From: a virus
Direction: 5' to 3' (one strand)
Length of the DNA stretch: 64,000 nucleotides
Virus record (IMG/VR): IMGVR_UViG_3300009124_000007
Span: 1 to 64,000 of that record
A program made the position numbers and the translations under genes. Of the stretch, positions 52,106-57,670 are shown in pieces. Each line of letters begins with the position of its first letter. The first letter of the stretch is position 1. Under the pieces are notes generated by a model. The model made no database searches, was not told the origin of the DNA, and worked only from the letters and a program-made list of their open reading frames with translations.

Positions 52106-52113
52106 TATAAATA
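52106..52113 (+). promoter_or_regulatory. T4-type late promoter TATAAATA
   Basis: Exact consensus upstream of the riboswitch-like RNA. Confidence 0.8.
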
Positions 52114-52140
52114 ATATGGTAACAATAGTTACCACTTATA

Positions 52141-52186
52141 CGTTCATCTTACAATTATAGTAAGACGCAAGTAAGTCGCGGAACGG
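52141..52186 (+). ncRNA. glutamine riboswitch-like element 1 (glnA / Downstream-peptide family)
   Basis: P1 CGTTC/GAACG; P2 TCTTAC/GTAAGA; CGCAAGTAAG junction. Confidence 0.65.
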
Positions 52187-52188
52187 AG

Positions 52189-52402
52189 CGTTCATCCTAT
52201 GTTATCATTGGCACTCATCTTTTTTAGTCACGTCCCAGTGGAGAATTATCTTCGCTGTGAAGACTATGAATGGTTGAAGCAGGGACTACAAGAGACAACT
52301 CTTTTCACTCCCTTTGAGAAATCTGATATTCTCATCCACTGGATGAATCATACAGATCCTCATTGTTTTGATAGCAAGGACGCACACGACTGAAGGAACG
52401 GG
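52189..52402 (+). ncRNA. Downstream-peptide (glutamine-II) riboswitch-like element 2 with a very large P2 loop
   Basis: CGTTCATCCT...AGGACGCACACGACTGAAGGAACGGG; upstream of a YRG-motif peptide. Confidence 0.7.
52199..52393 (+). CDS. 64-aa ORF inside the riboswitch P2 loop
   Basis: ATG in the P2 5' strand, TGA within the conserved GACTGAAGG; GGAG upstream. Confidence 0.65.
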   Translation: MLSLALIFFSHVPVENYLRCEDYEWLKQGLQETTLFTPFEKSDILIHWMNHTDPHCFDSKDAHD

Positions 52403-52436
52403 ATTTAATTATCTCATTTCTTTAGGAGTACCTACA

Positions 52437-52601
52437 ATGAACACACTAACCCTTATCAAGAAGCAGATCCAGAAGCAAGCAGCACTTCACGATGCTCAGA
52501 TTGCGATGACCACTTATCGTGGTGTTCGCTATGAGTGCCAGCAAGGTGCTGAAGAAGTTCATGGAACATTCTGCTATCGCGGTCACACTTATAACAAGTG
52601 A
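52437..52601 (+). CDS. DUF4278-like YRG-motif peptide
   Basis: AGGAG RBS; TYRGVRY and CYRGHTY. Confidence 0.8.
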   Translation: MNTLTLIKKQIQKQAALHDAQIAMTTYRGVRYECQQGAEEVHGTFCYRGHTYNK

Positions 52602-52602
52602 T

Positions 52603-52770
52603 ATGGAAAACTATGTCTATCATCATGATGACATGGATAAAGATAGCAGACCACCCAGTTGTTATCAACTCAAATATAGAGGAGTAACATACTGGTCCTG
52701 CTATAATATGCACTTGCATGAATACTTTGAGCGTCTGCTTGAAGTTGAAGCAAGTAACAGGGGACGGTGA
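52603..52770 (+). CDS. second YRG-motif peptide
   Basis: LKYRGVTY; starts immediately after the previous stop. Confidence 0.7.
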   Translation: MENYVYHHDDMDKDSRPPSCYQLKYRGVTYWSCYNMHLHEYFERLLEVEASNRGR

Positions 52771-52788
52771 CATACCGTCCCTTTTTTT
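52760..52788 (+). terminator. intrinsic terminator
   Basis: GGGACGGT-GACAT-ACCGTCCC followed by a T-run. Confidence 0.85.
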
Positions 52789-52824
52789 ATGTCTGCGAAT
52801 AGATATAGCAGACGCTAATTCATT

Positions 52825-54680: not shown

Positions 54681-54875
54681 GAGTTTCCCCGTTCTCACAA
54701 AACGGGGTGGTGGAGTCAATTATGACCCTCTTAGTCTCGGGAAGACATAAAACTCGCCCTGGTCGGGATGGTCCTAGGACCCCTGGAGTTTCCTGCTTCT
54801 CTCAAAAGCAGGTGGTGCGGATGGGAACTCTCCCGCCTGTTTCTTATTTCAGTAAAAAATAAGTGGCGAGCCTGC
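54681..54875 (+). ncRNA. structured RNA with three pseudoknot-TGGYG units (wcaG/manA-like cyanophage motif)
   Basis: Covarying H-type pseudoknots at 54681, 54786 and 54837, each followed by TGGYG. Confidence 0.75.
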
Positions 54876-54902
54876 TCTGGGGGACTTGACCCTCCCCCTC
54901 AA

Positions 54903-57518: not shown

Positions 57519-57557
57519 GGTAAACAAATGTAACGGACCTTTACGGAGTCGTTACAA

Positions 57558-57670
57558 ACCCCTGCCGCTTGACCGAGACTAGGCAGGGTTACCAATCCGT
57601 CTCTCATATCCTTACCTGAGGGTGGTAAGGAAATAAGTATCTCCACCATTTCCCTGATGGACCTACTTCT
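57558..57670 (+). ncRNA. PhotoRC-II-like structured psbA leader
   Basis: CCCTGCC/GGCAGGG stem; GAGAC/GTCTC pseudoknot; CCTTACC/GGTAAGG hairpin; 5' of psbA. Confidence 0.75.

Follow-up and report, generated by a model that had tools for sequence, protein, structure and literature searches.

How can the core helices of a ligand-sensing RNA at the same time hold the start and the stop codon of a protein gene? This question is raised by a locus in a stretch of 64,000 nucleotides (hereafter the window; positions 1 to 64,000 of IMG/VR record IMGVR_UViG_3300009124_000007, which comprises 76,966 bases) that represents a fragment of a marine T4-like cyanomyovirus. A sequence-only reading of the window had described here, downstream of a late promoter, two elements beginning with CGTTCA, the second of them interrupted by an open reading frame (ORF), and had taken the pair for glutamine-riboswitch aptamers in a tandem interlocked arrangement. 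On comparative evidence, we are inclined to regard the locus as a nested glutamine riboswitch with two cores that carries a protein gene and constitutes the leader of a late-transcribed cyanomyovirus operon. The individual parts had been located correctly: CGTTCA occurs at positions 52141 and 52189, 3' of the promoter box at 52106–13; UCCU-A-UGUUAUCA (52195–52207) can form a 12-bp stem with UGAUAGCA-AGGA (52369–80) that includes one G:U pair and bulges out A52199 of the ATG; the ORF of 64 codons spans 52199–52393, with its TGA (52391–93) lying within GACUGAAGG; the GGAG assigned to it is present at 52185–88; and AGTCG (52174–78) is complementary to CGACT (52387–91). What did not stand is the way in which the two elements had been paired with each other.

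Probable nested pairing of the two elements

A BLAST search against phage genomes returned 414 records, from which 12 isolates belonging to several Kyanoviridae genera were fetched (S-RSM4, S-H9-1, S-RIM4, S-RIM8, S-M1, S-H25, S-MS29, S-ShM2, S-WAM2, S-H35, S-RIM50, and WH25-B). The layout is identical in 12/12 isolates, with the ORF running from the ATG in UCCYAUG to the TGA in GACUGAAGG; the overlapping coding sequence is annotated in most of the isolate records, a few of which give a later start or no coding sequence. Pattern scans added more than 170 viral and 120 metagenome loci, and over 250 contigs of viral and metagenomic origin contain the element. The observed pattern is confirmed to be far from chance. 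A scan of genome contigs with a pattern of 14 fixed bases gave at least 120 loci, which were chance matches in unrelated bacteria (0/120 with motif context) and are uninformative on host cyanobacteria.

According to the sequence-only reading, each CGUUC would pair with its own GGAACG to give two tandem aptamers, interlocked by AGUCG/CGACU as a double pseudoknot. Compensatory base changes contradict this scheme. When viral loci were scanned for variants of the GGAACG of element 1, a G-to-C change was paired with a C-to-G change in the CGUUC of element 2 in 52/52 variant loci, and in these 52 loci the CGUUC of element 1 and the GGAACG of element 2 stayed canonical. The metagenome sample, scanned with either base allowed at both positions, contained 113 G/C and 7 C/G combinations and no mismatched one (120/120 complementary), and scans for single changes (A37 of the inner hairpin; C5 of the second CGUUC changed alone) gave no matches. 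The swaps therefore place the first GGAACG opposite the second CGUUC in a hairpin with a GAG loop, which leaves the first CGUUC and the second GAACG for each other. In the tandem scheme, the same double change, which preserves the inner hairpin, would leave one helix P1 with a C-C mismatch and its counterpart with a G-G mismatch, and this would apply to all 52/52 viral and 7/7 metagenomic variants, none of them accompanied by singly changed forms.

The covariance models point in the same direction. On relatives that lack the ORF, the glutamine-I model of Rfam (RF01739) recognizes one aptamer that extends across both elements (46.4, 37.1, and 36.9 bits at a cut-off of 35), aligning P3 as AGU...ACU over 38–41 nt, and only this nested alignment exceeds the Rfam cut-off. 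Moreover, AGUA is found in element 1 only and GAA in element 2 only; thus, a full E-loop can be built only across both elements. The tandem scheme can draw on sub-threshold matches (24–33 bits) of single elements to the glutamine-II and glutamine-I models, with the second element of S-PM2 alone reaching 33.3 bits, on the notion that element 1 would be the first to fold during transcription, and on the frequent occurrence of glutamine riboswitches in tandem (157 doublets and 4 triplets reported; PMC9481103). Weighing these points, we consider tandem aptamers at this locus very improbable, and the fold very probably nested instead of pseudoknotted. Judged by its order of parts (P3b-GGAACGG-loop-CGUUCA-P2'-ACGCA-P3a), the inner portion corresponds to a glutamine-I core with a circular permutation at P3.

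Covariation of the helices

Across 82 aligned homologues, 99.0% of the tested cells pair according to the nested fold, compared with 32–54% when partners are slid; eight pairs show changes on both sides, a result matched in 0/500 shuffles. The proposed check for covariation of the stem over the ORF among phage homologues came out in favor of this stem, here termed P2', in addition to the layout shared by the isolates. At its base, the variants UCCU/AGGA, UCCC/GGGA, UCCUCAU/AUGAGGA, and UCUAUG/CAUAGA were encountered, and the duplex energy amounts to −10.7 kcal/mol for true partners versus −7.9 kcal/mol for permuted ones (0/500). In the window itself, P2' is part of the minimum free energy (MFE) fold, with −12.7 kcal/mol according to duplexfold, and the inner P1' hairpin is likewise predicted in the MFE fold. 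In one clade, UUA is replaced by the synonymous leucine codon CUU at the start of the ORF, and DSK by EAQ at its end; the two changes occur together and jointly keep helix P2'. The hexamer GACGCA, which was fixed by no search pattern, is invariant in 82/82 aligned homologues.

The AGUCG/CGACU complementarity, previously noted as such, turned out to be a genuine covarying long-range helix (P3) when tested by scans aimed at variants. The alternative forms AGUCA-UGACU (30/30), AAUCG-CGAUU (7/7), AUUCG-CGAAU (3/3), and AGACU-AGUCU are compensated, and G-U intermediates as well as a joint 3-nt insertion were seen as well. Scans for variants at P3 positions 3 and 4 gave no matches, and the sole uncompensated type of locus is that of S-PM2/L071.

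Probable glutamine-aptamer identity

Rfam at gathering thresholds reports no glutamine family at this locus of the window. In permissive mode, element 1 only is matched, by Glutamine-II with 28.6 bits and by Glutamine-I with 27.2 bits (cut-offs of 33 and 35, respectively). The window misses the RF01739 cut-off because the model cannot span the 208-nt insert in P3. Features of this family are discernible one by one: a P1 of CGUUC and GAACG encloses the aptamer, the P2 hairpin follows directly 3' of CGUUCA, and P3 together with the E-loop is formed by AGUA-AGUCG (52170–78) and CGACU-GAA (52387–94), closing over 208 nt. For RF01704, the scores lie at 28.6 (window), 29.7 (L008), and 28.1 bits (L118) relative to 33 bits, with aligned hairpin pairs being flagged as non-canonical. 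An ORF-bearing metagenomic example of the element is contained in the glnA alignment of 2010 (glnA.sto, supplement file 80 of PMC2864571, row JCVI_SCAF_1101668558910/801-358), where its 5' half seems to be aligned as far as the AGU of P3, with the ORF and the second half standing as plain flank.

In solved structures, the glutamine pocket is made up of CGUUC/GGAACG(G) and the CGC linker (PMC6698751), and both cores of the locus retain all pocket nucleotides named in that study. The earlier assignment of both halves as glutamine-aptamer sequence is upheld. We regard it as likely, with good confidence, that the outer aptamer senses glutamine, and the conserved pocket nucleotides lead us to infer that the inner core may bind glutamine as well.

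The enclosed reading frame and its protein

Almost certainly, the ORF is a real coding gene, as indicated by its conservation pattern. It ends exactly at the core T[GA]A in 143/149 viral loci with a long insert, and at a TAG in the stem in 4 more; in the independent metagenome sample, the corresponding figures are 95/105 and 8/105. In the 12 loci with the earlier stop, a UAG in P2', the frame is shorter by five codons. Across loci, ORF lengths vary from 49 to 66 aa and are always in frame. The ratio of non-synonymous to synonymous substitution rates (dN/dS), the check that had been suggested for the loop ORF, amounts to 0.14–0.30 within homogeneous length classes, with a predominance of third-position changes, and 137/137 unique ORF proteins fall into one BLAST cluster. 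An insert that acts as non-coding RNA only is ruled out by frame conservation and dN/dS. The view of a gene placed in an aptamer loop holds insofar as a real gene is found under a covarying stem; the gene is not confined to the loop, since the 5' strand of the stem contains its start and the P3/E-loop core its end.

The ORF protein matches phrog_13397 over the full length of the profile (residues 1–64 of 64; E = 9.4e-49) and has no match in Pfam. Its 55 homologues, all of 51–65 aa, are called hypothetical where named, and a protein atlas assigned only unnamed viral clusters, below 0.8. AlphaFold models the protein with confidence as a small helical hairpin (predicted local distance difference test score, pLDDT, of 78), for which a search among PDB folds gave none at E ≤ 0.001. 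H11, C20, H51, and C56 are invariant in the 64-aa class, with C20 and C56 being close to each other in the model, and shorter ORF classes retain just the two cysteines. This cysteine/histidine pattern suggests a disulfide or a metal site in the modeled structure.

In 8 viral contigs, the double element is present with a short covarying P2' hairpin and without the ORF, and a YRG peptide gene follows in each of them. Contigs from metatranscriptome libraries also include forms in which a short hairpin replaces the ORF, one being UUCG-capped. The existence of these forms means that the ORF occupies a dispensable hairpin loop. One might then view the ORF as a passenger gene in a tolerant hairpin loop, comparable to homing-endonuclease genes in intron loops, which makes use of the signals of the leader and has no regulatory tie to glutamine. 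This would be in line with the dispensability of the loop, with the presence of GGAG and U[GA]A in the ORF-less forms too, which makes these signals older than the gene, and with a protein that has no recognizable link to nitrogen metabolism. It is harder to reconcile with start and stop being fixed within core helices in more than 90% of the loci, while the body of the gene diverges widely in length and sequence, or with the 105:1 excess of the ORF-bearing over the compact form in the metagenome sample; in addition, physical exclusion between ribosome and fold holds regardless of where the gene came from. Overall, a passenger without regulatory role appears quite improbable to us.

Among the compact ORF-less double elements, that of S-PM2 (L469:440-538) carries AGCCGACU in both halves, not AGUCG/CGACU, and its inner loop reads GAU, not GAG; each of the two AGCCGACU copies could fold locally into a mini-hairpin of 2 bp, or both could join in a quasi-palindromic helix of 8 bp that contains two C-A mismatches. 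In several loci (L118, L007, L017, L032, L035, L040, and L050), an extra conserved insert of about 25–30 nt is found in the platform loop, between GGAACGG and AGGAG. It consists of ACGGAUC, a short GNRA- or UUAG-capped hairpin and then GAGAAGGUUAA or UAAAGGAG, and may represent either another RNA module or an additional ribosome-binding site.

Expression platform and a possible switch

The stretch CUGAAGGAA, which overlaps the end of the ORF, can pair with UUUCUUUAG, and in the resulting platform helix, the AGGAG of YRG gene 1 has its first two bases masked. The MFE fold that contains this helix has a z-score of −6.0. Comparing the middle base of the stop codon with the base before AGGAG, we counted 35 loci with G-C, 20 with G-U, 16 with A-U, and 0 with A-C, and the helix comprises at least 6 bp in 68/74 loci. 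According to the published ON-switch model, ligand binding frees the ribosome-binding site, and glutamine riboswitches turn on DUF4278/IF17 genes (PMC6212724); the masking seen here fits this model.

As to the anatomy of the ORF, its likely ribosome-binding site lies at the tip of P1' and its AUG in the P2' stem, and its last eight codons plus the stop codon coincide with P2', the inner linker, P3, and the E-loop, the stop codon starting at the last base of P3. With start and end of the ORF inside core helices, the aptamer cannot be folded while a ribosome is on the ORF. The mutual exclusion of translation and folding that the sequence-only reading had anticipated thus extends to the ribosome-binding site, the start, the last codons, and the stop of the ORF, all of which are aptamer nucleotides. 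A translating or terminating ribosome would unfold P2', P3, the E-loop, and outer P1, and, conversely, the folded RNA would hide the start region of the ORF. The CUGAAGGAA strand would pair alternatively within the aptamer or with UUUCUUUAG. At high glutamine, both cores would be locked, with the ORF turned off and the YRG/IF17-like peptides turned on as in known ON switches; at low glutamine, the cores would loosen, the ORF would be translated, and the masking helix would form behind the ribosome. Such a reciprocal glutamine switch between ORF and YRG genes is a tentative proposal derived from the layout of the sequence, and it may well prove wrong. More doubtful still is its most elaborate version, in which two pockets sit on one shared P3, the inner one being a natural circular permutation with the gene threaded through it, and in which each ribosome resets glutamine sampling such that the loop protein is made at low and the IF17-like peptides at high glutamine.

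Several points weigh against the nested glutamine riboswitch and the switch built upon it. Most of our search patterns fixed the junction sequence, making the conservation of the junction partly circular. The window's own sequence remains under the Rfam cut-offs. Outer P1 never varies; its assignment derives from exclusion and from the Rfam model, not from covariation within this helix. The inner core is devoid of an E-loop, and its closing G, being located in a 3-nt loop, may be strained. In relatives of the S-PM2/L071 type, with AGCCGACU in both elements, Rfam reads element 2 as a separate aptamer (33.3 bits), and tandem folding may occur in some relatives. Finally, a ribosome terminating at the UGA would open the masking helix too, in which case translation of the ORF could activate the YRG genes and not oppose them.

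The last point can be extended to an alternative in which the nested fold is retained and the ORF serves as an activating upstream frame: ribosomes arriving at the UGA would melt the helix 52390–98/52417–25, so that translation of the ORF and glutamine would both turn on YRG synthesis. In favor of this, the covarying masking helix contains the stop codon in its 5' strand, just 30 nt separate the stop from the next AGGAG, and translational coupling is frequent in T4-like phages. On the other hand, ORF-less relatives regulate the same genes, and in the 12 loci that stop at the UAG in P2', the ribosome would reach the helix less well. We consider an activating ORF unlikely, though less so than a passenger gene.

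Relation to known systems

The nested riboswitch proposed here shares with glutamine-I (glnA RNA, RF01739) the CGUUC/GAACG P1, the P2 hairpin, the CGC linker, the AGUA/GAA E-loop, and P3, as well as, in marine cyanobacteria and their phages, the position 5' of DUF4278/YRG genes. It differs in the span closed by P3, 208 nt as against about 4–10 nt in the known family, and in that the insert is a second aptamer-like core with a protein gene; the family model misses the window. Common to glutamine-II (Downstream-peptide RNA, RF01704) are the pocket nucleotides, including CGC with GGAACGG (C:G closing pair), and the location upstream of YRG peptides, whereas the pseudoknot hairpin that this family forms around GGAACG is absent: the partner strand is 208 nt away, in the nested P3. 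Published tandem glutamine riboswitches (PMC9481103) likewise have two sets of pocket nucleotides in one leader; they are, however, side-by-side units, while here one core would lie inside the P3 of the other and share this helix with it, with a single expression platform and a circularly permuted inner core. The compact elements of S-PM2 (L469, 440–538), L118, and L133–L164 are BLAST homologues and have the two cores, the platform, and the downstream YRG gene, but no ORF and merely a short hairpin as P2'.

Two systems outside the glutamine families combine a reading frame with a structured RNA. In the Mg2+ leader of Salmonella mgtA, the mgtL peptide of about 17 codons, which has no function itself, is encoded in the expression platform. 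Leader ORFs of this type also place a reading frame within a sensing RNA and let translation compete with alternative structures; in our case, a conserved protein with a predicted fold is encoded in the aptamer, and its start and stop are shared with core helices. In the group I intron of T4 td, the gene of the mobile endonuclease I-TevI resides in a peripheral loop. Here, too, a protein gene is looped out from a hairpin of a structured RNA in a T4-like phage and translation competes with folding, yet td is a self-splicing intron with a mobile endonuclease, as opposed to a ligand sensor with a small protein and no sign of mobility.

Glutamine riboswitches in cyanophages (PMC2864571) and tandem arrangements of them (PMC9481103) are known; our literature searches yielded no account of glutamine aptamers in a nested or permuted pair, nor of a gene within the aptamer. 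Aptamers are usually treated as compact non-coding domains, and family models search on that assumption. The locus would, in contrast, exemplify a widespread phage riboswitch that is invisible to its family model and whose aptamer encloses a second core plus a whole gene. To our knowledge, it would be the first well-supported example of aptamer-core nucleotides serving as start and stop codons of a conserved protein gene, and also the first nested, circularly permuted aptamer pair with a shared helix. In the most elaborate version described above, if true, the riboswitch would integrate ligand and translation inside the aptamer itself. The locus offers a direct test bed for the interplay of ribosome traffic and ligand sensing, and a new phage protein would join the glutamine-controlled set, alongside the IF17-like peptides that are thought to act on host glutamine synthetase. 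The findings further suggest that there are more split aptamers with large inserts that go unrecognized.

Setting of the locus

The coordinates of all features are compiled in Table 1.

Table 1. Features of the leader and its operon in the window, in order of position; helices are named according to the predicted nested fold.
Feature	Position	Strand	Basis or remark
T4-type late promoter box TATAAATA	52106–52113	+	Motif count, conservation
5' hairpin, predicted transcript start	52117–52134	+	MFE fold, compensated stem changes
Outer P1, 5' strand CGUUC	52141–52145	+	Pairs with 52396–52400; invariant; assigned by exclusion and RF01739 alignment of ORF-less relatives
Outer P2 hairpin	52147–52165	+	4/4 tested pairs change on both sides
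Outer linker CGC and AGUA half of E-loop	52166–52173	+	RF01739 consensus aCGgAAGUA
P3, 5' strand AGUCG	52174–52178	+	Pairs with 52387–52391, 208 nt between
Inner P1' hairpin GAACG-GAG-CGUUC	52181–52193	+	Compensatory swap, MFE fold
Likely ORF ribosome-binding site GGAG	52185–52188	+	Tip of inner P1'
Inner P2', 5' strand, holds ATG 52199–52201	52195–52207	+	Pairs with 52369–52380; stem-base covariation
64-aa ORF, phrog_13397	52199–52393	+	Profile match, frame conservation, dN/dS
Inner P2', 3' strand, encodes C-terminal residues of ORF	52369–52380	+	Covariation as for 5' strand
Inner linker CGCACA, CGC as second pocket linker	52381–52386	+	Conservation
P3, 3' strand CGACU, its U opens the stop codon	52387–52391	+	Covariation as for 52174–78
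Expression platform, CUGAAGGAA (52390–98) with UUUCUUUAG (52417–25), enclosing hairpin 52400–04/52411–15	52390–52425	+	MFE fold, covariation
GAA half of E-loop, then outer P1 3' strand GGAACG and closing G	52392–52401	+	Exact RF01739 consensus GAAGGAACG
Ribosome-binding site AGGAG of YRG gene 1	52424–52428	+	Conserved in alignment
YRG peptide gene 1, 54 aa	52437–52601	+	phrog_545, E 5e-33; DUF4278, 20.9 bits
YRG peptide gene 2, 55 aa	52603–52770	+	DUF4278, 16.3 bits
Strong intrinsic terminator ending the operon	52759–52790	+	11-bp stem with 6 G-C pairs, then T run

The YRG peptide genes that had been expected downstream were found, as YRG/DUF4278-like genes. Both peptides contain YRG motifs and score below the Pfam gathering cut-off for DUF4278 (PF14105; 25.3 bits), for which reason they are best called DUF4278-like; relatives have 1–3 such genes. 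Together with the leader, the unit 52437–52790 looks like a self-contained late operon. Contigs from metatranscriptomes span approximately 52138–52780 with nothing just beyond; ends, strand, and level are not definable from contigs, and these were not used as evidence. The promoter box TATAAATA occurs 8 times in the window, every copy on the + strand, relative to 1.6 expected, and is kept as ATAAATA in most relatives. The stem of the hairpin that follows a few bases 3' of it alternates between GUAAC/GUUAC and GUAGC/GCUAC among relatives, a compensated change, and the hairpin could protect the mRNA end; a scan also listed this hairpin as resembling a terminator on the minus strand. Ribonucleotide reductase genes are located upstream of the locus. 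Two known cyanophage RNA motifs were identified by Rfam elsewhere in the window: a wcaG RNA at 54784–54877 (83.4 bits), adjoined by a tRNA gene, and a PhotoRC-II RNA at 57552–57644 (56.5 bits).

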